Assembly: GCA_963762255.1 (NCBI GenBank)
Contig: CAVXKA010000002.1
Coordinates: forward strand, 643,371-707,370
Source: Candidatus Eiseniibacteriota bacterium
Lineage (GTDB): Bacteria; Eisenbacteria; RBG-16-71-46; JABDJR01
Length of the DNA: 64,000 nucleotides
Reading direction: 5' to 3'
Each line of letters begins with the position of its first letter. Within the stretch, counting starts at the first letter, position 1. The notes beneath the pieces are model-generated. The model searched no databases. It saw only the letters and a program-made list of their open reading frames with translations, and had not been told where the DNA came from. A program made the position numbers and the translations under genes. Of this stretch, positions 46,392-57,320 are shown one piece after another.

Positions 46392-46955
46392 TTGAAGATC
46401 GCGTTCATCGGCACGCATGGGGTGGGAAAGACGACCCTGTGTTTCGATCTCGCCGCCAATCTCAAGCGCCTCGACTTCACCGTGGACCTCGTGAAAGAGG
46501 TGGCGCGGGATTGTCCCCTGCCCATCAACCGCGACACCACCTACGACGCGCAATCGTGGATCTTTCACACCCAGATCGCGCGCGAGCTGGCCTCGGCGGG
46601 ACGCCACGAGGTCGTCATCTGCGACCGCTCGGTGCTCGACAACTACGCGTATCTGGTCAACAAGATCGGGCGGCGCAAGGAAATGGACCCCCTCATCACC
46701 CACTGGCTCACCACGTACGGCGCGCTGGTCAAGGTGCCGATCTGGAAGGCCCCGAGTTTCGACGGCGTACGCGACGTGGGGCTCGAGTTCCAGCGCGAGA
46801 TCGACCGCACGCTGGAAGCCCTCATCGCCGATTTCGGCGTCTCCGTGCTGCGGCTGGAGCCGAGCGAGATGGAGATGTGGACCCAGCGTGTGCTCGACTA
46901 CCTCGACCTCCCCACGCGGGCCGAACAAGTGCAGCTCTTCCCGGAGGATGCATGA
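46392..46955 (+). CDS. P-loop NTPase (AAA_28 / NadR-kinase-like ATP-binding protein)
   Basis: Walker A motif [15 protein letters not shown] start with RBS GGTGAGGGACCA-TTG. 187 aa. Confidence 0.6.
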
Positions 46956-48100
46956 CCCGTCACGATTCCAAGCACCATTACCTTGCCGGGCCCCGCATCC
47001 AACCGCAAGCCATCCGCGGCGGCATGACGGTGGACACGCTCATCGACGAGACGTTCCTGGCCTACAACGCGGGGCGCATCCAGACCGCGGCGCGGCTCCT
47101 GGTCGAGAAGGGACTGCACGCGGACACGACGATGGGGCTCTCGCTGGCCGGAGCCATGAGCCCGGCGGGGGTGACGCTTTCGACCATCATCCCGCTCGTG
47201 CAGGCGGGGTTCATCGACTGGATCGTCTCCACGGGGGCGAATCTCTACCACGATGCGCATTTCGGGCTGGGGCTGGCGCTTCACCGAGGCAGCCACACCC
47301 TCGACGACCGTCAGCTCTTCGAGGCGGGGGTGATTCGCATCTACGACGTCCTCTTCGACTACGAGGTCCTGCTCAAGACCGACGCCTTCATCCGCGAGGT
47401 GATGAAGAACCCCGAGTTCAAACGCACGATGGGCACCGCGGAGTTCCACCACTTGCTCGGCAAGCACCTCGCCGCGCGTGAGGAAGCGCTGGGGCTCAAG
47501 GACACGTGCCTCCTGACCGTCGCCTACCGCTGCGGCGTGCCGTGCTACGTCTCGTCGCCCGGGGATTCCTCGATCGGCATGAACGTGGCCGAGATGGCGA
47601 TCCGCGGCGAGGGCCCGGTGATCGACGTGAGTCGCGACGTCAACGAGACGGCGGCCATCGTCTACGATGCCAAGAAGCACGGGAAGAGCGCGGTGCTGCT
47701 CCTGGGCGGCGGCTCACCCAAGAACTTCGTACTGCAGACCGAGCCGCAGATCCAGGAAGTGCTGGGATTGCCGGAGAAGGGGCACGACTACTTCATTCAG
47801 GTGACGGACGCGCGGCCCGACACAGGCGGGCTTTCGGGGGCGACGCCCTCCGAGGCGGTCTCGTGGGGCAAGATCGATCCGTCCCAACTCCCCGACACGG
47901 TCGTCATCTACTCCGACACCACGATCGCGGCGCCGCTCCTGGCCGCCTACATGCTGAGTCGGCACGAGCCGCGCCCCTTGAAGCGGCTCTACGACCGCCG
48001 CGATGCGATCTACGGGCGATTGCGCGAGGACTTCCTGTCAGCTCGGCGCGAGCCGGAGGACATTCGCGGCACACGCGACGAGGTGCGCCCGGGCGGTTAG
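46952..48100 (+). CDS. Deoxyhypusine synthase family protein (DHS-like; candidate homospermidine-synthase-type NAD-dependent aminobutyl transferase)
   Basis: 382 aa starting [18 protein letters not shown], with a DHS-like NAD-binding core (...STGANLYHD...GGGSPKNF...). ATGA overlap with the ATPase stop. Confidence 0.65.
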
Positions 48101-48133
48101 CCGCTCGGTCTGGACGACGCCGAGACGAGTCTT

Positions 48134-50791
48134 CTACTTCGCCTCGAAACGACCCTGGAAGAAACGCAGCTTGTCCGGCTCGTACACGAACGTGAGTCCC
48201 TTGAGACTCTCCCGCCGGGCGTAGACCCGCTGAATCCCCTCGGCGATCCCCCGCATGTGGTCGTTGGTGTAGACCCGGCGAGGAATCGTGAGGCGAACCA
48301 ATTCCAGGGCGGGGCGGTAGTTTTGGCCCGTCTGCGGGTTCCGGCCCTTGGAGACGTTGCCGCGCTCCATGGCCCGCACCCCGGTCTCGACGTAGATCTC
48401 GGCCGCAAGTCGCTGAGCCGGGTACTCGTCCTGATCGATATGGGGCAGAAATCTCTTGGCATCGATGAAAATCGCATGCGTTCCCGCGGGGACGACGATC
48501 GGAACCCCGGCCTCTTGCAGGAGCTGCCCCAGATAGTGGGTTTGCTGCACGCGGGACCGGATGTACCGATCGTCCAGCATCTCCTCGATTCCGCGGTTGA
48601 TGGCTGCGAGGTCCGCGGTGGCCAGCCCCCCGTCGGTGACGTTCCCCTCATAGATCCGCAGCAACTCCAACGCCTTGTCCGCCCATGCCTGATTGTCCCG
48701 GAAGGCGAGGAGGCCGCCGATGTTGATGAGGAAGTCCTTCTTCCCGCTCACCGTGCAGCCGTCTCCGTAGAGCATCATCTCCCGCACGATGTCTCGGATC
48801 TTCACCCCGCGGTAGCGAGGATCCCGATTCTGGATCATGTACGCATTCTCGACGAACCGGGTGGCATCGAAGAAGATCGGGATGCCGAGCGCGCTGCAGT
48901 ACTCGTACACCTCCTTCATGTTGTCCATGCTGACCGGCTGGCCGCCGGCCATGTTCACCGAGTGCTCGAAGGAGATATAGGAGACCTTCTCCGCCCCGTG
49001 CTCGTCGACCACTGCGCGGAGCTTCTGCAGATCGATGTTCCCCTTCCAGGGGAATTCGCTCTGGGTGTCATGGGCCTCGTCCACGATGATGTCGACGAAG
49101 ACGCCCCCCGCCAGTTCCTGATGAAGCTTGGTCGTGGTGAAGTACATGTTTCCCGGCACCCATTGCCGATCCTTGATCATGACCTGGCTCAGGATGTGTT
49201 CGGCCGCCCGCCCCTGGTGGGTGGGAATGATGAACTGGTACCCGAGAACATCCTGAAGCGTCGCGGTCAGGCGGTGGTACTCGTCGCTGGACGTGGCGCT
49301 CGCTCGCGCGCCGTCGTAGGCCGCCCACTGATCGGTGCTCATGGCCGTGGTCCCGGAGTCGGTCAGGAGATCGATGGAGACGTCTCCGGAGCGAAGCAGG
49401 AACGTGTTGTACCCCGCCTCTCGAATCGCCCGCTCGCGCTGGTCCCGGGCGAGAACTCCGACCCTCTCCATGGTGTGGATCTGGTAGGGCAGGGTATCGA
49501 ATTCGAAGGACCGGAGGTTCGGGAAGACCCAGTGGTAGTGCATCTGGTCCCGCCAGGCTCCACCCGCGATCTCCTGAAGACCCGCCACCTGGTCGCACTG
49601 CCCCTGCAAGGCAACGATCGCATCGGCCACCTGATCGAGCTGCGCGTTGGTCATGGCCAACCGAGGAATCTGAACCGGCACCAGCCGGTCCTTGCCGACC
49701 AGACCGGTGGCCACCGCGCGAACTCCGGAGAGCAGATAGAGCGCGGCCGAGAACGTGTCCTGCTGGTGCTCGGTGATGTGCGGCAGGAATTCATCGGCCC
49801 GGATGTAGGCCCCGTCGCACCCCCGCTCCAGAGGGACGCCCGCATCCCGGAGCCTCTGTGTGAAGCGTTCCGTCTGGTGCATGACCCAGTGAACTTCACC
49901 CTCGTCGCACATCTCCTGGATCCCGCGGGCGAGAACTTCCATGGTCCGGCCGGCCATCCCCCCGTAGGTGTGCAGGCCCTCGTAGACCACGACCTCGTTC
50001 ATGAACTTCTCGTGCACGTCGGGGTCGTCGGTCGTGAGAATGCCCCCGGTGTTGCACTTGGGATCCTGGGCTCCGTCCATCTGGAAGACATCGGTGGTCT
50101 TTACGATCTGCTTCACGATCTCGGCGACAGGCCTGTCGGCCTGGCCCGGCTCGTGGTGCTGGATGTACCAAGCGTTCTCGATCACCCGGGAACCGTCGCA
50201 GATGACGAGCTTCCCGTGCTTGGCCGCGGCTGCCTTCACCGCCCGCAGGTTGGCGAGGCTGAAGGGGTGCCGCCCGTCGGCGAACGCCTGAAGCCCGACG
50301 AAGGCCACGTTCCCCTGCTTGAGAACTCCCTCCAGTCGTCCCAGGTCGACGTTCCCGGTGAACACCGGCTCCTCGGTGTCCCGCACGTCCGGGTACTGAA
50401 CGTTCAGCGGTCTGAACACGTCCAGCCGCGAGCGCGCGTTGCTTGGCACGGCGGACCCGGCCGGCACCAGGGTCGACACCACCAGCTTCACGCAGCCCAG
50501 CACGTTGTGAGTGGGACAGACGTACCCGTGCCCGAGAACGTCCTTCACCGCCCTCTCGAGCGATTCGAAATTGCGGGAGCCCGCGTAAGCCTCGTCGCCG
50601 ATCAACTGACCGGAGAGCTGCTCCTGACTGAACGCGCTGGTTCCCAGCGAGCACATGTCGAAGTTGACCTGGGTCGGGGTCAGATGCCAGACGTTGAATC
50701 GGGCCCGGGAGAGATACTTCTTGCGCTCTTCCAGCGTGGGGAAGGAGAGAAGCCGGACCGTCTTGATCTTGTGGGGCTCGTGCGTGACCAT
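48134..50791 (-). CDS. Tandem fusion of two beta-eliminating lyase (tryptophanase / tyrosine phenol-lyase) domains. The C-terminal copy is canonical with the PLP lysine (SGKKD). The N-terminal copy is divergent and lacks the KK motif.
   Basis: Single 885-aa ORF from MVTHEPHKIK (RBS AAAGGAACGAGC-ATG). The C-terminal half shows tryptophanase hallmarks (NTFLLRSGDVSIDLLTDSGT, VSGKKDFLINIGG, ...RFFQGRFE). The N-terminal half aligns to the same fold (MNEVVVYEGLHTYGGMAGRT vs LELLRIYEGNVTDGGLATAD) but has DGAQDPKCNTGG in place of SGKKD. Confidence 0.75.
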   Translation of the reverse strand: MVTHEPHKIKTVRLLSFPTLEERKKYLSRARFNVWHLTPTQVNFDMCSLGTSAFSQEQLSGQLIGDEAYAGSRNFESLERAVKDVLGHGYVCPTHNVLGCVKLVVSTLVPAGSAVPSNARSRLDVFRPLNVQYPDVRDTEEPVFTGNVDLGRLEGVLKQGNVAFVGLQAFADGRHPFSLANLRAVKAAAAKHGKLVICDGSRVIENAWYIQHHEPGQADRPVAEIVKQIVKTTDVFQMDGAQDPKCNTGGILTTDDPDVHEKFMNEVVVYEGLHTYGGMAGRTMEVLARGIQEMCDEGEVHWVMHQTERFTQRLRDAGVPLERGCDGAYIRADEFLPHITEHQQDTFSAALYLLSGVRAVATGLVGKDRLVPVQIPRLAMTNAQLDQVADAIVALQGQCDQVAGLQEIAGGAWRDQMHYHWVFPNLRSFEFDTLPYQIHTMERVGVLARDQRERAIREAGYNTFLLRSGDVSIDLLTDSGTTAMSTDQWAAYDGARASATSSDEYHRLTATLQDVLGYQFIIPTHQGRAAEHILSQVMIKDRQWVPGNMYFTTTKLHQELAGGVFVDIIVDEAHDTQSEFPWKGNIDLQKLRAVVDEHGAEKVSYISFEHSVNMAGGQPVSMDNMKEVYEYCSALGIPIFFDATRFVENAYMIQNRDPRYRGVKIRDIVREMMLYGDGCTVSGKKDFLINIGGLLAFRDNQAWADKALELLRIYEGNVTDGGLATADLAAINRGIEEMLDDRYIRSRVQQTHYLGQLLQEAGVPIVVPAGTHAIFIDAKRFLPHIDQDEYPAQRLAAEIYVETGVRAMERGNVSKGRNPQTGQNYRPALELVRLTIPRRVYTNDHMRGIAEGIQRVYARRESLKGLTFVYEPDKLRFFQGRFEAK

Positions 50792-50958
50792 GCTCGTTCC
50801 TTTGGAGAGATCCGATTCCGAGCGCGACCCGTCGATTAGAGCGGAAGGGGGCTCCGCCGGGCAAGAGGGTAAGAGATCATTCCCAAAATGTATCGCCGCG
50901 GACTTCCGGTATTTCGGGTTACTTGCCCAACCGGCGAGCCCGGACGCGATCGACATCG

Positions 50959-50991
50959 CGAGGGGGGGTCGGATTCCCCGATCCCCCCTCG
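50959..50991 (-). terminator. GC-rich hairpin (9-bp stem CGAGGGGGG/CCCCCCTCG, 14-nt loop) between the T9SS protein gene and the tandem lyase gene. Candidate terminator or attenuator, with no U-tract.
   Basis: A perfect inverted repeat is read directly from the sequence. It is located 27-59 nt downstream of the stop of the 51018..52475 gene and about 170 nt upstream of the lyase start. Confidence 0.3.
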
Positions 50992-51017
50992 AACGGACAG
51001 TTCCCCGATAGGCTCGA

Positions 51018-52475
51018 TCAGCGCATGAGTAGGAGCTTCCGGGTGAGCTTCTCCCCCGCCACCTCCAGGCGGTAGAAATAGATCCCCGACGGCATGGAGT
51101 CCGGCGACGTCGCATCGAGCGTCACCCGCTGCAAGCCGGGTTCCATCGGCGCGTTCACGATGACCCTCACCAACCGGCCCTGCACGTCGAAGAGGCTCAG
51201 GCGGACGGGCACTGTAGCTGCCCCGTCCTTCGCCGCGGGAACCTGGAACGAAATCTCCGTGCTCCGGGTGAACGGGTTCGGCGAGTTCTGGAGAAGTCTC
51301 GGAGTCGGCGAGAGGTCGCCGTCATCCAGACCGCCCTGGCCGGTCGGGAAGATCTTGAATCCCTCGGGGGCGCGCGTCTGCAGTGTCGCCATCACGATGC
51401 CCCTGCTGGGGATGTTCCAAGTGAGGTTGGCCCCCGAGAAATAGGGCTCGTTCACCACCGGATTGATCGAGAGCAGCGGGTCGATGGGCACGCCGAGGGG
51501 AATCACATTCCCGTAGTCACTTATCGCCCATGCGTCCCCGGTGAAGACGTCGATGACGGCGAAATCCAGCAGGACCCCCGCAGGCACACAGGTCGAGTAC
51601 ACGCCGGGAGCGGGATCTAGACCATCCGAGAAATCCCATGCGCCCTCGTCGGTCATGAAGCCAAGCCTCAGCACTTCGGGCGCGGCCATCAGCTCGACGG
51701 TAATTGTCACCCAGGTGCAATCTGGCTTGAACTCCTCCGGCCAGCCGGTGCCGCCAAAGACCGGCATGACATTGAAGTTCTGCTTCTCATCCTTGGCCCT
51801 GTAGGGCTTGTACGAATGGCCGTTCGTGATGTTCCTGATCTTCTGCTGCTTGTCGGCCTCGGTGAACGACCGATTGTCCTGAGCTCTCTGGCTTGCAGGC
51901 ACGAGGGTTCCGTCACAGTTGACGTCCCCGGGATTCCTCGAATGGCCGGCTCCGCGAAGGATGTGATCGAGTTCGTGCGCGGCATTCTCCCCGATCGCAT
52001 TGGAGCGGGCGGTCGAGTTGCTGAACCACGTCGAGACGTTCGGATCCGCGGTGAACTCTCCACCGTAGATGTTGGCCGTAGTGCTCCAGGCCTCCCCCCA
52101 CACCAATCCATCCCCGGTCACGGTATCCCGATCCGGAGTGATATTGAGCTGGTGATAGGACCCCGTCGTCGGCTTGACCGTCGTGAAGTTGATGAGCGTG
52201 GAGGCGAAGCCGTACTTGCTCTTCAGCGTCTCCATGACCATGCCTCGCTCGGTCGCGTTCAGCCAGTTGGACTGCATGCTCACATAGACGGTGATGACCG
52301 CACCGGTGCCCGGCTGGAGCATCATCCGGTCGGAGCGGGAGAGAGGAACAGGCGGCGAGAACCCGGGGGCGGGGCCGGACCACGCGGGGTCACGTCGACC
52401 CAGGTCGGCCGTCGCCGGAGCCGCGAGAAGGACGAGGGCGAGAGGGATCAGCAGGGCGATCGCGAACCAACGCAT
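51018..52475 (-). CDS. Secreted zincin-like metalloprotease-domain protein with T9SS-type C-terminal sorting domain
   Basis: Signal peptide (MRWFAIALLIPLALVLLAAPATA), HExxH-containing segment (AAHELDHILRGAGH), and a C-terminal approximately 80 aa segment matching the Por/T9SS sorting domain (LLQNSPNPFTRSTEISFQVP...LSLFDVQGRLVRV...SGIYFYRLEVAGEKLTRKLLLMR). Confidence 0.7.
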   Translation of the reverse strand: MRWFAIALLIPLALVLLAAPATADLGRRDPAWSGPAPGFSPPVPLSRSDRMMLQPGTGAVITVYVSMQSNWLNATERGMVMETLKSKYGFASTLINFTTVKPTTGSYHQLNITPDRDTVTGDGLVWGEAWSTTANIYGGEFTADPNVSTWFSNSTARSNAIGENAAHELDHILRGAGHSRNPGDVNCDGTLVPASQRAQDNRSFTEADKQQKIRNITNGHSYKPYRAKDEKQNFNVMPVFGGTGWPEEFKPDCTWVTITVELMAAPEVLRLGFMTDEGAWDFSDGLDPAPGVYSTCVPAGVLLDFAVIDVFTGDAWAISDYGNVIPLGVPIDPLLSINPVVNEPYFSGANLTWNIPSRGIVMATLQTRAPEGFKIFPTGQGGLDDGDLSPTPRLLQNSPNPFTRSTEISFQVPAAKDGAATVPVRLSLFDVQGRLVRVIVNAPMEPGLQRVTLDATSPDSMPSGIYFYRLEVAGEKLTRKLLLMR

Positions 52476-52644: not shown

Positions 52645-54432
52645 TTAGTCGGTTTTGACGGTACGGACGCCATCCCCCGATCCTCGGCGCCGCACCCCCT
52701 CCAGGGCGCGCTTCAGCCCCTGTGCGTATGGAGCATCCGGCTCGCCCGCGAGAACTGTCGCCAGTTCCTCCTCGGCACGGTCGAGATCTCCACGCCGATC
52801 GGCGTCCTCGAGATATAGCTCGAAGTGGCAGCGGGCCAGTACGTACCTCGTGAAAAGCAGATCGGGAAAGCTGGCCAGCACCCGATCGAGGGGGTCGATG
52901 CACTCCTCGTAGCGGGCCGCCTCGTAGTCCGCCTTCACCTGATTGAGCATTCGGCTCGCCTCCCCGAAGGGAACCGTGCGATCGATCCGTGGATCCTGCT
53001 GCTCGGCGAGACGTCGATACGATTCCAGGTCTCGGAGGAAGGAGCGCGATTGCATGACTGAAGGAGCCCAGGACGGGTCCCGAGCGGTGAGAACGAGCGT
53101 CGCCCCCATCACTCCCATGGCGCCGAGAGCACGCCACCGGCGCCCGGAGCGGAGCGTCGCCGCCAGCCAACACAACCCGGCAGCGGCGAAGATCGCCAGG
53201 TAGGGCACGATGAGAAGCCGGAAGCGGGCAAGAACGATGAACGCGATCGTCTGCAGGAAGATGAGCGCCATGAACACGTACAGGGGCAACAATTCCCTGC
53301 GGCGTCTCGCCGTCACGATCATTCCCAGGATCGCGAAGGGCAGAAGAAAAGCGTACGAGGTGAACGGAAGCCGCAGCCCGGCGACCACGTTTCGGGCGTG
53401 GTAGAAGTTCACGTTGTTGGGAACCTCGTAGTCCCTCCAGAAGGCGCGCGTCTTCCTCCACCAGAGATTCGCGAGTCCTTCCGGCGCACCGGCATGGGCT
53501 TTGAAGACCTCGATGACGGTGGCCGGGAACTGGTTCTTCGTCTTCCACACCGTCTCCTTGGTGGAAGGAGGAAGGTGAAATCCTACCGACCCCTCCACCG
53601 CAGTGTCCGGCGCGTTCCCGGAGATGAACGTCACCGGTCCCCGCGTGTCAATCTGGAGCAGCGGTTGACCCACCTCGGCGTTCCTCGCCGCGAGCAACCC
53701 CAGAGGAACGGCGAAGAGAAGCGCGTAGACGGCGATGAACCTCAGGCGCTCGCGCCACACCTTCGTGGCGACGAGGACAAGGATCACCGCGCCCAGCCAG
53801 TACGCCGACGGTTTGGCCAGCAGGTCGATTCCGGCCACGAAACCGGCCGCCGCCCAGAGAGCCGCCCGCTTGCGGCTCATCGCGGCCAGGAGGGTGAGGA
53901 GCGCTGCGAGGTTGAGGAGGGTGAGGAGTGTCTCGCGGAGCAGGGTCATCTCGAAGAAGATGAAGGGACCGTAGACGGCGGTGATCAAGGCGGCAAGCAG
54001 AGGGATCCAGCCCGGGAAGAACCGGCGCGCGACGAGATAGACGAGCAGCACGCGCACCACCCCGAGAAGGAGCTGCGCGGCGTACGCGCGGTCCGGGTTC
54101 ACCCCGGCGACTGCATAGATGGCCCCCACGAAATAGCCGTAGAGAGGGGCCTGATAGAAGGCGCTCGGCCCGCCGTACCACGCCACCCACTGCTCGGCGG
54201 GCGCGATGACGCGGGCCCAGGAGTGGCAGGGCAGAAACGCGTTCCGGTACAGGATGTCCCCGCCGGCAATACGAACACCGAATTGATGCCACGTGAAGTT
54301 GTCGAGTTCCGTGAAGTGCGTGTAGTCGAGCGGCATCTTGGACGTGAACTCGGCGAATATCGCGGCCCTCAGCAGCGCCGCCAACAGGAGGATCGCGCCG
54401 AGGAGAGTCCAGTCACGGCGACTTGGGTTCAC
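52645..54432 (-). CDS. GT-C fold membrane glycosyltransferase (PMT_2 / GT39-like) with C-terminal TPR-like soluble domain
   Basis: Multi-TM N-terminal 430 aa with a PMT_2-like arrangement. C-terminal Glu/Arg-rich helical repeats. Start overlaps the upstream gene stop (ATGA). Confidence 0.6.
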   Translation of the reverse strand: MNPSRRDWTLLGAILLLAALLRAAIFAEFTSKMPLDYTHFTELDNFTWHQFGVRIAGGDILYRNAFLPCHSWARVIAPAEQWVAWYGGPSAFYQAPLYGYFVGAIYAVAGVNPDRAYAAQLLLGVVRVLLVYLVARRFFPGWIPLLAALITAVYGPFIFFEMTLLRETLLTLLNLAALLTLLAAMSRKRAALWAAAGFVAGIDLLAKPSAYWLGAVILVLVATKVWRERLRFIAVYALLFAVPLGLLAARNAEVGQPLLQIDTRGPVTFISGNAPDTAVEGSVGFHLPPSTKETVWKTKNQFPATVIEVFKAHAGAPEGLANLWWRKTRAFWRDYEVPNNVNFYHARNVVAGLRLPFTSYAFLLPFAILGMIVTARRRRELLPLYVFMALIFLQTIAFIVLARFRLLIVPYLAIFAAAGLCWLAATLRSGRRWRALGAMGVMGATLVLTARDPSWAPSVMQSRSFLRDLESYRRLAEQQDPRIDRTVPFGEASRMLNQVKADYEAARYEECIDPLDRVLASFPDLLFTRYVLARCHFELYLEDADRRGDLDRAEEELATVLAGEPDAPYAQGLKRALEGVRRRGSGDGVRTVKTD

Positions 54433-57320
54433 GGCTTGCCCCGCTCGGCGACGTGCGCGGCGTACGCCGCGCTGGCAGGGTCGAGACGCGCTGCCATTTC
54501 CCAGGCGCGGGCCGCCTCGTCGCGGCGACCCAACCGATCCAGAGCCCGGGCGCGCGTATCGTGGTACGAAGCGCGCGTGCTGTCCACGCCGACGGCCGCG
54601 TCCGCCCAGCGCAGCGCCTCTTCGGAAGCGCCGCCCGACCCGTCGATCCGCCGCAGCAGCAGCCAGGCCAGAGCGTTCATCCCGTCACCGTGCTTCTCGT
54701 AGAGTCCGAGCAGGTTTCGCAACGTCCTCTCCGCTTCATCGAGCCGGTCGCGTTCGAGCAGGAAGCGTCCGTAGCGAAAGAGGTACTCCGCGTGCTTGGG
54801 TTGCGCAGCGAGAGCGGCGGTCATGGCCTGATCGGTCTCCGTCATCCGCCCGAGAGATTCGTAGAGGAGCGCCGCGCGGAATCGATGCGCGGCCGACACG
54901 TCCGATCGCTCCGAAAGTACCGCCAGCGCGCGCAGCGCGGGCTCGGTCCGTCCCTCGTCGACGTCCAACTGAATCAGGTCCAGGTCCAGCGTGACCGGAT
55001 CGAATCGGGACTTTCGCGCTTCGCTCAGAAGCGAGCGGGCAAGCCCTCGGTTGCCCCGCGCGCGCTCGAGTTCCGCTCGAGCGGCGAGAACCTCTCCCGA
55101 TGCCGGACGGACGGTCCATGCGCGACGTAGCTCACGCTCTGCCCTTGCGAGATCGCCCGCCGCGATGTGGACCCGGGCCAGATGAAGAGCGGTCACGGGA
55201 TCCGTCGCCCTCAGCGCACGCGCCTCGACCAGGGCCGATTCCGCCTTCGCGACGTGGCCCAGGGCGAGCTCGGCTAGACCCAGAACCTGCAGGACGTCCA
55301 CCGCGTATCGGTTCCGCTCGAGTGCCTGACGCGCCTCGTCGGCCGCCTCGCGGTGGGCCCCCCGGCGCAGGAGGTGCTGGGCCAAGGCTCCGCGCGCGAA
55401 AGCGCTGAGGGGGTTCAAGCTCGCCGCCGCCGCGAAGTTCGTGTACGCCTGATCGGTCCGCCCGATCTCGTCGCAGATGAGGCCGAGATAGACATGGCTC
55501 TCGATGTCCCACGGGCGTGCGGACGCGGCCACGCGTTCGTACCGGCGGCGCGCATCACCGGCGCTCCCACGATCCCTTTCCAGGAGTCCCAGGAAGTACT
55601 CCGCGGAAAGAGCCGTGGGGTCGAGGTTCAGCACGGACTCGAAAGCCGCCGCGGCCCTGTCGACGTTGGCCGCCGCATAGTGGGCGACCCCGGTCTGCAC
55701 GCGTGCGTCGAGATGAAGCGGTGCGATGTCCGCGCAGCGTCGAAACGCGTCGATCGCCTCGACGTATCTCCCCTCCTGCTGGCAGAGCCGGCCCAGTCCA
55801 TAATGTGCGCCTGCATCGTCGGGATCGAGCCGGACCGCCTCGCGGAAGCGCCGTTCCGCATCCACGAAATCGCCCCGGCCCATGTGGGCGTAGCCCAGCT
55901 CGCCGATCGCCTCCGGGTTTCCGGGGAGGATCTCGAGGGATTCCTCCAGGCGTTCGATGGCTTCGTCATGGCGGCCGATCTGGCTCAGGTACCGGCCATA
56001 GTAGAGATGCATCCGCGAGCTGCGCGGGACCACGTCCAGGGCCGCGGCAAAGAGCGTGGCGTCGTCCCGCCAGTCCCGGCTCCGCTCCGCGGTTCGCGCA
56101 CCGTAGAGTGCGAGCAGGACTCCAAGCGCCCCCCATCCGAGTGCGCGTCGTCGCGGCCGCGCGAGCCATTCGAAACCGAGCGCCAGGATCACCGCAAATC
56201 CCAGGGTCGGGAGGTAGAGGAGACGCTCGGCGAGGATCGTCCCGATGGGAACGATCAGGTTGGAGACAGGCAGGAGCGGCCCCAGGAGCAGCACCGCTCC
56301 CACGAGAAGCGCGTGATGGCGCCCGAAGGACCGCAAGAGGAGCCAGGCGCCGGCGAATCCTACCGCGAGGGCCGCCAGCACTCTGACATTGAGGAGACTG
56401 ACCAGAGGCGGGATCTGACTGTAGGAGTAGTCGGCGCTCAAGCGCAGCGGAAACGCGAGAAGCGCCGCATAGCGACCCAGGACATAGAGCGCACTGCCGA
56501 TCCGCTGCGCGGCGGGCAGATCGTAAAGCGGATTGTCCATGATGCTCACCGCGGCCGGGCCGCCTGTCTGCTGCGGACCGAGTACAAGAAGGCGCAGGAG
56601 GCCGACCGCCAGCAGGGCCACCCCGTAGCCCGCGTAGACCGGCCAGGCGAATCGGCGGGCCGGCGGCCCCGACGCCGCACGCGGCGCGGCTCGCGCCGAC
56701 GCTTCGATCACGACGGCCAGAAGCGGGAGCACGACGGCGGATTCCTTGGTGAGGAGTGCGAGCAGGTAGGCGACGGAAGCACCGATCAGACGGCGACGTC
56801 CGCCGGACTCGATGTATCCGAAGTGGAAGAGCAGGGCAACAAGCGTGAAACCCGCGCTCAAGATGTCGGCGCGCCCGACGATCCCGGATACCGCCTCGAC
56901 GTGGACGGGGTGCACGGCAAAGATGAACGCGCCGACGGCGGCGGCCGCTCGGCGCTTGATGAGCGCGAGCAGGAGAGCATAGGCGAGCAAAGACACGACG
57001 GCGTGCAGCGCGATATTGACCGCGTGGAAGCACGCGGGTCGGTAGCCCCAGAGCGCATGGTCGAACGCATAGGTCGCGATGACTACCGGCCGGTAGAGGC
57101 CGGCGTCGGCATTCTCCGCGCCCCAGTAACCGGTGCTGAAGATGCGCGGGAGATTCTCGATGCTTCGGATGAGGGGGTTGCCGGCCACGATGGCGTTGTC
57201 GTCGTAGACGAACCCGTTTCGAAGCGTGTTCGCGTAGGCGGCGGCGCAGAGCAACAGGATGATGGCGGCCACCAGAAGGTGCCGCCTGGCGCCTGGTCTG
57301 ATTTCCGGCTCCGCCATCAT
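54429..57320 (-). CDS. TMTC-like protein: N-terminal multi-TM DUF1736/PMT-like glycosyltransferase domain fused to a long TPR array
   Basis: 963 aa. N-terminus (LLCAAAYANTLRNGFVYDDNAIVAGNPLIRS) matches the TMTC/DUF1736 family start. About 10 TM helices are followed by approximately 550 aa of TPR repeats. Confidence 0.65.
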   Translation of the reverse strand: MMAEPEIRPGARRHLLVAAIILLLCAAAYANTLRNGFVYDDNAIVAGNPLIRSIENLPRIFSTGYWGAENADAGLYRPVVIATYAFDHALWGYRPACFHAVNIALHAVVSLLAYALLLALIKRRAAAAVGAFIFAVHPVHVEAVSGIVGRADILSAGFTLVALLFHFGYIESGGRRRLIGASVAYLLALLTKESAVVLPLLAVVIEASARAAPRAASGPPARRFAWPVYAGYGVALLAVGLLRLLVLGPQQTGGPAAVSIMDNPLYDLPAAQRIGSALYVLGRYAALLAFPLRLSADYSYSQIPPLVSLLNVRVLAALAVGFAGAWLLLRSFGRHHALLVGAVLLLGPLLPVSNLIVPIGTILAERLLYLPTLGFAVILALGFEWLARPRRRALGWGALGVLLALYGARTAERSRDWRDDATLFAAALDVVPRSSRMHLYYGRYLSQIGRHDEAIERLEESLEILPGNPEAIGELGYAHMGRGDFVDAERRFREAVRLDPDDAGAHYGLGRLCQQEGRYVEAIDAFRRCADIAPLHLDARVQTGVAHYAAANVDRAAAAFESVLNLDPTALSAEYFLGLLERDRGSAGDARRRYERVAASARPWDIESHVYLGLICDEIGRTDQAYTNFAAAASLNPLSAFARGALAQHLLRRGAHREAADEARQALERNRYAVDVLQVLGLAELALGHVAKAESALVEARALRATDPVTALHLARVHIAAGDLARAERELRRAWTVRPASGEVLAARAELERARGNRGLARSLLSEARKSRFDPVTLDLDLIQLDVDEGRTEPALRALAVLSERSDVSAAHRFRAALLYESLGRMTETDQAMTAALAAQPKHAEYLFRYGRFLLERDRLDEAERTLRNLLGLYEKHGDGMNALAWLLLRRIDGSGGASEEALRWADAAVGVDSTRASYHDTRARALDRLGRRDEAARAWEMAARLDPASAAYAAHVAERGKP

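Follow-up and report, generated by a model that had tools for sequence, protein, structure and literature searches.

We analysed a 64,000-nt stretch of DNA (hereafter, the window) from contig CAVXKA010000002.1 of a Candidatus Eiseniibacteriota bacterium and found that one of its genes, a single uninterrupted open reading frame (ORF) of 885 codons plus stop at 48134-50791 on the minus strand, encodes two units related to tyrosine phenol-lyase (TPL) in one chain. In ordinary TPL and tryptophanase, two identical subunits make two active sites, each built from the subunit that binds pyridoxal phosphate (PLP) and from residues that reach over from its partner. In the fused protein these two contributions have been parted, the C-terminal unit keeping the cofactor site and the N-terminal unit keeping the residues that reach over. 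We consider it probable that the two units pair as an N:C pseudo-dimer and that each chain thereby has a single, composite active site of the TPL type, which would amount to a single-chain, asymmetric version of the TPL “catalytic dimer”.

An initial annotation, made from the letters of the DNA alone, had proposed that two copies of a beta-eliminating lyase are fused head-to-tail in this 885-aa ORF, and the profile and alignment evidence bears this out. Pfam PF01212 (Beta_elim_lyase, gathering cut-off 27 bits) matches the protein twice, as had been anticipated. When the halves are scanned alone, the N half scores 88.1 bits (E 8.6e-25) and the C half 240.8 bits (E 2.5e-71), and both are thus members of the family, each separately above the cut-off. 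Aligned with each other by BLASTP, a comparison that the annotation had suggested, the halves share 27% identity over 433 columns (E 3e-44). Residues 3-406 of the N half match TPL 9j3u with an E value of 2.9e-60, and residues 432-883 of the C half match the Erwinia herbicola TPL 1c7g with an E value of 8.6e-163. The best PDB matches of the C unit are TPLs, with 53-54% identity compared to 37-44% for tryptophanases, and a Foldseek search of the PDB matched this unit with a TMt of 0.94 at 54% identity. The annotated motifs are also in place: the C copy carries the PLP-lysine motif VSGKKDFLINIGG, with SGKKD at residues 682-686, and DLLTDSGT at 474-481. The N copy lacks both, having DGAQDPKCNTGG at residues 239-250 and FDMCSLGTSA instead of DLLTDSGT.

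The residue pattern that carries our reading was obtained from 121 family members, both halves of which were mapped on TPL numbering (E. herbicola sequence, numbering checked). Residues were counted in two classes. The cis set (n = 20) holds residues acting on a subunit's own cofactor or substrate, namely Thr49, Ser51, Gly52, Gln98, Gly99, Arg100, Phe123, Thr124, Asn185, Asp214, Arg217, Ser254, Lys256, Lys257, Asn262, Met379, Arg381, Arg404, Phe448 and Phe449. The trans set (n = 5) lies on segments reaching the partner's site and consists of Glu69, Tyr71, Val283, Met288 and Tyr291. In the C unit all 20 cis residues are the same as in TPL and invariant in 121/121 sequences, and none of the five trans residues is retained (Glu69 is replaced by Ala, Tyr71 by Ala, Pro, Thr or Ser, Val283 by Arg, Met288 by Asn and Tyr291 by Asp). 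Arg712, which stands for Val283, lies just upstream of YEGNVTDGGLATAD. In the N unit the trans positions Glu67, Tyr69, Val268, Leu273 and Tyr276 are each invariant (121/121), with Met288 changed to Leu and the other four as in TPL, and only 4 of the 20 cis residues are retained, i.e., Gly52, Asp214, Arg217 and Asn262. Residue class and retention are significantly associated in the C unit (Fisher test, p = 1.9e-5) as well as in the N unit (p = 0.023).

The losses in the N unit fall throughout its cofactor and substrate site. Lys256-Lys257 has become Ala-Gln, Gln98-Gly99-Arg100 has become Asn-Val-Leu, and Ser254 and Arg404 have been replaced by Asp and Pro, respectively; Phe123 has been deleted, the Phe448/449 tail has been remodelled and the Asn185 equivalent is missing as well. 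The position of the Schiff-base Lys257 is Gln in all 121 sequences, which agrees with the earlier view that the N copy is unable to bind PLP covalently. The degenerate motif DGAQDPKCNTGG is itself conserved: in an alignment of 51 sequences, 7 of the 12 positions do not vary at all, and conservation at the remaining 5 is at least 90%. The cofactor set (Lys257, Gln98, Gly99, Arg100, Phe123, Asn185, Asp214, Arg217, Ser254 and Lys256), mostly gone from the N unit, is complete in the C unit of all 121 proteins. There it is joined by the equally invariant TPL specificity residues Thr552 (Thr124), Arg810 (Arg381) and Phe877/Phe878 (Phe448/449) and by Arg833, the equivalent of the carboxylate-binding Arg404. 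In TPL every subunit carries the donor Tyr71 within GDEAYAGS; in the fused protein only the lysine-less N unit has equivalents of Tyr71 and Tyr291, the latter within EGLHTYGG, which is invariant in 121/121.

For the assignment of the trans set we take Tyr74 of E. coli tryptophanase (in GDEAY) to be the counterpart of TPL Tyr71, and Tyr307 (in PTYGG) that of TPL Tyr291, by motif match, with Lys270 of the E. coli enzyme as a control. Glu69 is presumably a K+ ligand supplied across the interface, and Val283 and Met288 presumably correspond to the Arg292* segment of aminotransferases. In E. coli tryptophanase, Tyr74 and Tyr307 hydrogen-bond the PLP phosphate of the neighbouring subunit, and the Y74F enzyme has negligible activity (PMC2770544). 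The homologous Tyr-72* of tryptophanase likewise reaches the active site of the neighbouring subunit (PMC11301627). In TPL, Tyr71 is the general acid, and roles of Arg381 and Thr124 have been described too (PMC10170061).

A C:C dimer would lack the general-acid tyrosine and an N:N dimer would lack the cofactor, so that only an N:C pair gives a complete site. We infer that this pairing occurs within the chain. An ancestral TPL-like unit would have been duplicated in tandem long ago and reciprocal loss would have followed. The C unit would have kept what is needed in cis (the PLP lysine, the binders of phosphate, ring and carboxylate, and the TPL-specific Thr124, Arg381 and Phe448) and lost the donated residues, and the N unit would have kept the donated residues and the dimer interface and lost its own PLP site. 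The N unit would then pack on the C unit as a partner subunit does, supplying Tyr69, Glu67 and Tyr276 to the cis residues of the C unit. Each 885-aa chain would thus have one active site, one PLP and one K+ site, and the mirror-image site would be dead on both sides. Two chains probably pair via the two retained N-terminal arms in imitation of the TPL tetramer, with two active sites and not four. Since the trans residues Tyr71, Glu69 and Tyr291 are lost from the C half and retained without variation in the N half, the latter is most likely indispensable to catalysis as a partner that contributes to the sole active site, beyond any role as a scaffold. The TPL-specific pocket of the C unit, together with its closer identity to TPLs than to tryptophanases, makes cleavage of tyrosine to phenol, pyruvate and NH4+, or a close beta-elimination, the most likely reaction.

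Selection on both halves is purifying, and the N unit shows no decay. In a comparison with a 95%-identical relative, the N unit, the linker and the C unit have ratios of nonsynonymous to synonymous substitutions (dN/dS) of 0.077, 0.116 and 0.047, and their mean identities within the family are 76%, 56% and 80%, respectively, the linker being the least conserved part. AlphaFold2 modelled the whole chain from the 51-sequence alignment with a pLDDT of 82 and a pTM of 0.80. Values of this size are hard to reach without a defined mutual arrangement of the units and fit a fixed N:C packing, with the arms awaiting a second chain. The uncertain parts of the model are the active-site loops and the N-terminal arms 1-14 and 433-446 (the latter with pLDDT <50). 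In the TPL tetramer it is the N-terminal arms that lock the two catalytic dimers together (PMC10170061), and with the same regions uncertain in the model, a dimer of chains mimicking the TPL tetramer is plausible. The PDB matches of Foldseek were single chains of TPL or tryptophanase, which span one half of the model (TMq 0.49), and no solved double-unit structure was among them.

The fused design is widespread and common among uncultured soil and sediment bacteria. We searched protein clusters of a collection of 5.8 billion proteins and scanned genomes at one genome per species. Among the matches listed, at least 120 protein clusters are 74-95% identical to the fused protein, with lengths of 866-925 aa (mostly 883-889); their sources are assemblies of JGI, NCBI, ENA and Logan, with contigs of up to 4.7 Mb. 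A relative is encoded by 157 species-representative genomes, the best 80 of which are all metagenome-assembled. Gemmatimonadota dominate the carriers among the matches listed, which also include Acidobacteriota, Myxococcota, Eisenbacteria, Planctomycetota, Desulfobacterota and one Anaerolineaceae genome. Three independent contigs of the 95%-identical relative carry the gene with a called length of 885 aa. Source databases label the protein plainly as “tryptophanase” (NCBI) or “tyrosine phenol-lyase” (JGI). A full-text literature search, whose reach left most subscription journals outside, yielded no account of TPL or tryptophanase in fused or tandem form, and the architecture is apparently a new variant, lacking a description in the literature, within a well-known enzyme family. 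The initial annotation knew of no description of the architecture; this stands for the literature searchable by full text but not for the databases, where the protein is common under plain enzyme labels.

An exhaustive search with the N unit alone revealed deeper fused relatives, 11 of which were examined. They are 847-928 aa long, 31-36% identical to the N unit of the window's protein, and have the same order and polarity of units. All 11 N units keep Glu69, Tyr71 and Tyr291; in all 11 C units Gln-Gly-Arg, Ser-Lys-Lys and Asp214 are present and Tyr291 is missing. Seven of these proteins (P0124, P0125, P0126, P0130, P0132, P0135 and P0139) form a TPL-type group with the window's family, with Arg381, Arg404 and Phe-Phe in the C unit and Lys257 lost from the N unit (that of P0139 aligns in fragments only). 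In a second group (P0133, P0134, P0136 and P0137) the N unit retains the lysine, mostly with Gln-Gly-Arg. P0133, P0134 and P0137 (870-909 aa) have Lys-Lys and Gln-Gly-Arg in both halves, and their C half lacks Tyr291 and has non-TPL pocket residues. The second group may represent less advanced or different stages, and these three proteins could be enzymes with two sites or intermediates in evolution. A rough neighbour-joining tree without support values places the TPL-type C units next to genuine TPLs. No N unit branches among the single-domain enzymes or together with the C unit of its own protein, and most N units group loosely near the root. This placement suggests one old duplication with divergence afterwards.

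The N-unit search gave no convincing split pair, i.e., lysine-less and tyrosine-less units as separate genes. The candidates for a naturally split pair (P0121, P0122, P0129, P0140 and P0146, lysine-less and about 450-640 aa) look like contig-end fragments or frameshifted fused genes. Two other proteins, P0168 (3002 aa) and P0185 (1552 aa), hold complete tryptophanase-type lyase domains inside very long chains and recall the thiocysteine-lyase (SH) domain of a polyketide synthase, PDB 9cen, which is present among the PDB matches.

Several other accounts of the fused protein have to be weighed against a composite site. A merger of two neighbouring genes, or of a gene and a pseudogene, through a frameshift or mis-assembly has next to no probability, since the frame is unbroken, purifying selection acts on both halves, and a protein of about 885 aa recurs in the clusters, in the 157 species genomes and on three contigs of the 95%-identical relative. 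Recurrence at the same length in independent assemblies thus excludes a frameshift or assembly artefact, including the joining of two genes by sequencing error that the initial annotation had considered. It is improbable, too, that C units form ordinary C:C catalytic dimers and that the N unit is merely a regulatory or scaffolding pseudo-enzyme domain outside catalysis. Absence of the PLP lysine is typical of pseudo-enzyme domains, and the invariant Tyr492 of the C unit, near the lost Tyr71 position, could conceivably stand in. But a C:C dimer would miss Tyr71, Glu69 and Tyr291 from both of its sites, and a Tyr-to-Phe mutant of the matching tryptophanase residue has hardly any activity (PMC2770544); the invariant GDEAYAGS and EGLHTYGG, kept in every deep fused lineage, would be left unexplained as well. 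The C copy can therefore not be taken as the full enzyme that it had been treated as, its donor residues being lost, and of the description of the N copy as a pseudo-enzyme, the loss of the PLP lysine stands but an optional regulatory or scaffold role is improbable, given that Tyr71, Glu69 and Tyr291 are kept invariantly.

Still less probable is that both halves are catalytic, with the N unit as an altered second site that uses non-covalent PLP or another cofactor for a different reaction. The N unit does keep the equivalents of Asp214 and Arg217 (Asp199 and Arg202), and its relic pocket (Asn96, Asp172, Asp239, Gln242 and the DGAQDPKCNTGG motif) is nearly invariant in the family. Against this, it lacks the Schiff-base Lys, Lys256, Ser254, Gln98/Gly99/Arg100, Phe123, Asn185, Arg404 and the Phe448/449 tail, its pocket would receive neither Tyr71 nor Tyr291 from the C unit, and the relic residues vary among deep lineages, position 257 being Q, D, E or K. 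The “altered second active site” of the initial annotation is accordingly unlikely. A further reading keeps the composite site and has the dead mirror site recruited as an allosteric or regulatory ligand pocket, or plugged by a salt-bridge network that stabilises the pseudo-dimer. It draws on invariant, charge-complementary substitutions, with C-unit Arg712 (Val283) and Asp720 (Tyr291) facing Asp172, Asp239 and Gln242 of the N unit as proposed contacts, and on the high overall conservation of the N unit. We regard it as rather unlikely, since no ligand is indicated, the pattern differs among deep lineages, and in a family whose members are 75% identical, conservation says little. We hold as equally tentative the more specific proposal of a hard-wired “half-of-the-sites” PLP enzyme, in which the dead site, rebuilt with these facing residues, would be an allosteric pocket controlling the catalytic site. 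If this were true, the less degenerate fused lineages would document how a symmetric dimer turned, step by step, into a chain of enzyme plus regulator.

The composite N:C site thus remains the account that we favour, and the following points weigh against it. The N:C contact, be it within or between chains, is deduced from conservation and the pTM value. The trans roles of Glu69 (as K+ ligand), Val283 and Met288 are presumed. The C unit alone scores 633.8 bits on the TPL equivalog TIGR02618, below its cut-off of 720.7, and tyrosine as the substrate is therefore not assured. The invariant Tyr492 lies six residues upstream of the lost Tyr71 position and could, in principle, be a migrated catalytic residue. 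Neighbour genes conserved across 80 related loci, which could have pointed to a pathway, were not found. Lastly, the carriers found are all metagenome-assembled genomes, and substrate and catalysis are predictions.

Comparison with known enzymes places the fused protein nearest to TPL, with a caution for its annotation. On TIGR02618 (EC 4.1.99.2) the whole protein scores 879.1 bits and the N unit 250.8, so that, with the C unit also under the cut-off, the pass of the whole protein comes only from adding two sub-threshold stretches. The “tyrosine phenol-lyase” label of JGI matches a cut-off passed by summing the halves in this way (633.8 + about 250 vs 720.7). The tryptophanase equivalogs TIGR02617 and NF053783 are not reached by the whole protein (627.9 vs 825.8 and 672.9 vs 750, respectively), and only the broad subfamily model PRK13238 is passed (840 vs 285). 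Whole-protein cut-offs are a general pitfall for tandem-duplicated proteins, and the annotation of the fused family needs correcting.

Compared to the TPLs of Citrobacter freundii (2ez1) and E. herbicola (1c7g), the C unit is 53-54% identical over its full length and shares all binders of cofactor, carboxylate and phenol, and the likeness extends to the N unit (E 2.9e-60). TPL converts L-tyrosine to phenol, pyruvate and NH3, with K+ or NH4+ as activators. Classical TPL is a homotetramer of 51-kDa subunits with four PLP sites (PMC10170061). Unlike it, the fused protein joins two units, one of which misses the PLP site and the other Tyr71, Glu69 and Tyr291, and one site per two units would be expected. 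Tryptophanase (EC 4.1.99.1; 1ax4, 2oqx) belongs to the same family and fold, and its Tyr-72*/Tyr74 and Tyr307 illustrate the cross-subunit principle. Unlike tryptophanase, the fused protein stays below both equivalog cut-offs, and Thr and Phe occupy in its C unit the indole-pocket Asp and His positions, which in the P. vulgaris enzyme are the indole-specific Asp133 and His458 (PMC11301627). The closest analogy is serine palmitoyltransferase (SPT) LCB1/LCB2 (SPTLC1/SPTLC2), a heterodimeric fold-type I PLP enzyme for which a single active site per heterodimer is the working hypothesis (PMC3794620). The residue pattern is of the same kind in the fused protein, where one of two paralogous units lacks the PLP lysine and keeps the residues that complete its partner; no homology is claimed on this account. 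SPT differs in that it belongs to the alpha-oxoamine synthase subfamily and catalyses another reaction, its eukaryotic subunits are separate and membrane-bound, and homology exists at the fold-type level only. A coccolithovirus encodes both SPT halves as a single fused chain.

PLP enzymes of fold type I function only as dimers, their active sites being shared between subunits, and unexplained asymmetry or half-of-the-sites behaviour is seen in many of them; crystals of TPL often contain one closed and one open subunit. The fused family is a natural experiment in which asymmetry is fixed in one chain, with the cofactor site in one unit and the trans-acting catalytic tyrosines in the other. Cis and trans contributions to TPL catalysis would be separable in it by single mutations, which is impossible in a homo-oligomer. 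It would also be a worked example of complementary degeneration (subfunctionalisation) within one gene, with intermediate stages extant. TPL is an industrial catalyst for L-DOPA and tyrosine analogues, and a covalently linked, non-dissociating catalytic dimer may be of interest to industry. In nature, the family marks a potential route from tyrosine to phenol in abundant uncultured soil and sediment phyla.

Table 1. Features of the fused lyase gene, in window coordinates; residues are those of the 885-aa protein
Feature	Coordinates	Strand	Remarks
Whole gene	48134..50791	-	Tandem fusion of two TPL-like units, 885 codons + stop
Ribosome-binding-site-like AAAGGAA (AGGA)	50797..50803	-	7 nt 5' of the ATG at 50791; read directly
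N-terminal unit, residues 1-424	49520..50791	-	PLP-lysine-less “donor” half; whole TPL fold up to the modified C-terminal tail WRDQMHYHWVFP (413-424)
GDEAYAGS, residues 65-72, N unit	50576..50599	-	Glu67 = TPL Glu69, Tyr69 = TPL Tyr71 (general acid); 121/121
THNVLGCV, residues 94-101, N unit	50489..50512	-	Relic of phosphate-binding THQGRGAE (Gln98 to Asn, Gly99 to Val, Arg100 to Leu)
DGAQDPKCNTGG, residues 239-250, N unit	50042..50077	-	Relic of the SGKKD..N.GG PLP-lysine motif (Ser254 to Asp, Lys256 to Ala, Lys257 to Gln)
EGLHTYGGMAGR, residues 271-282, N unit	49946..49981	-	Leu273 = Met288, Tyr276 = TPL Tyr291 (E. coli tryptophanase Tyr307); invariant
Junction NLRSFEF, residues 425-431	49499..49519	-	From three-way alignment; leads directly into the N-terminal arm of the C unit
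C-terminal unit, residues 432-885	48137..49498	-	PLP-binding TPL-type “acceptor” half
DLLTDSGT, residues 474-481, C unit	49349..49372	-	Equivalents of Thr49, Ser51, Gly52; invariant
YDGARASATSS, residues 492-502, C unit	49286..49318	-	Degenerate GDEAYAGS loop; equivalents of Glu69 and Tyr71 gone
NMYFTTT, C unit	49130-49150	-	Phe123, Thr124; completes the TPL specificity set with MERGN, VRLTIPRR and LRFFQGRF
SGKKD, residues 682-686, C unit	48734..48748	-	Equivalents of Ser254, Lys256 and Schiff-base Lys257 (= Lys685); invariant
YEGNVTDGGLATAD, residues 714-727, C unit	48611..48652	-	Degenerate YEGMPSYGGLAGRD (Met288 to Asn, Tyr291 to Asp)
Substrate-pocket elements, C unit	48146..48370	-	MERGN (Met379, Arg381), VRLTIPRR (Arg404), LRFFQGRF (Phe448, Phe449)

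The two units are joined nearly directly, with about 7 residues between the tail of the N unit and the arm of the C unit (Table 1). The ATG at 50791 was preferred as the start because homologues and the gene calls of relatives begin at MVTHEPHKIK and because AGGA lies 7 nt upstream. A 993-aa version of the ORF, open to 51115, was rejected on these same starts and on homologue lengths. An antisense ORF of 860 aa at 48257-50839 on the plus strand matches no family in its own right and is most readily taken for a shadow ORF of a coding region with 64% G+C. A consensus scan of 47900-51300 found no sigma-70-like promoter and no terminator.

The lyase gene is the last in a run of minus-strand genes and is separated from the preceding gene by 226 bp with a strong hairpin. 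It converges on a deoxyhypusine-synthase-like gene across a gap of 33 nt with no terminator-like site. None of 10 window neighbours was conserved when searched by tblastn against 80 related loci (0-1/80), and de novo clustering of the flanking ORFs of the 80 loci gave no family in more than 10 of them. Synteny of the window context is found in the 95%-identical relative only. With no conserved neighbourhood, there is no basis for deducing a function from an operon.

The convergent gene, a member of the deoxyhypusine synthase family (Pfam DS, 233 bits), spans 46439-48100 on the plus strand, and its true start is probably at about 46952. The DS-family gene of the 95%-identical relative has a called length of 382 aa and comes after genes for AAA_28, GT2, M28-peptidase and aldehyde-dehydrogenase proteins. 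In the setting of the lyase gene, a bacterial enzyme of the DS type may produce homospermidine or a related polyamine. The gene upstream of the lyase gene (51018-52475, minus strand) encodes a secreted-looking protein of 485 aa with a weak match, 21.3 bits and below the cut-off, to Por_Secre_tail, the C-terminal sorting domain of the type IX secretion system (T9SS). The hairpin, GC-rich and without a U-run, lies at 50960-50990, 28 nt past the stop of this gene (-28.9 kcal/mol, z = -2.5), and its position suggests that the lyase gene has its own promoter. Further upstream, 52645-57320 on the minus strand holds adjoining genes for a PMT_2 glycosyltransferase (595 aa) and a TMTC-like protein with DUF1736 and TPR (963 aa). 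Together these two make up a eukaryote-like protein O-mannosyltransferase pair, and the relative has another PMT_2-like gene further along.

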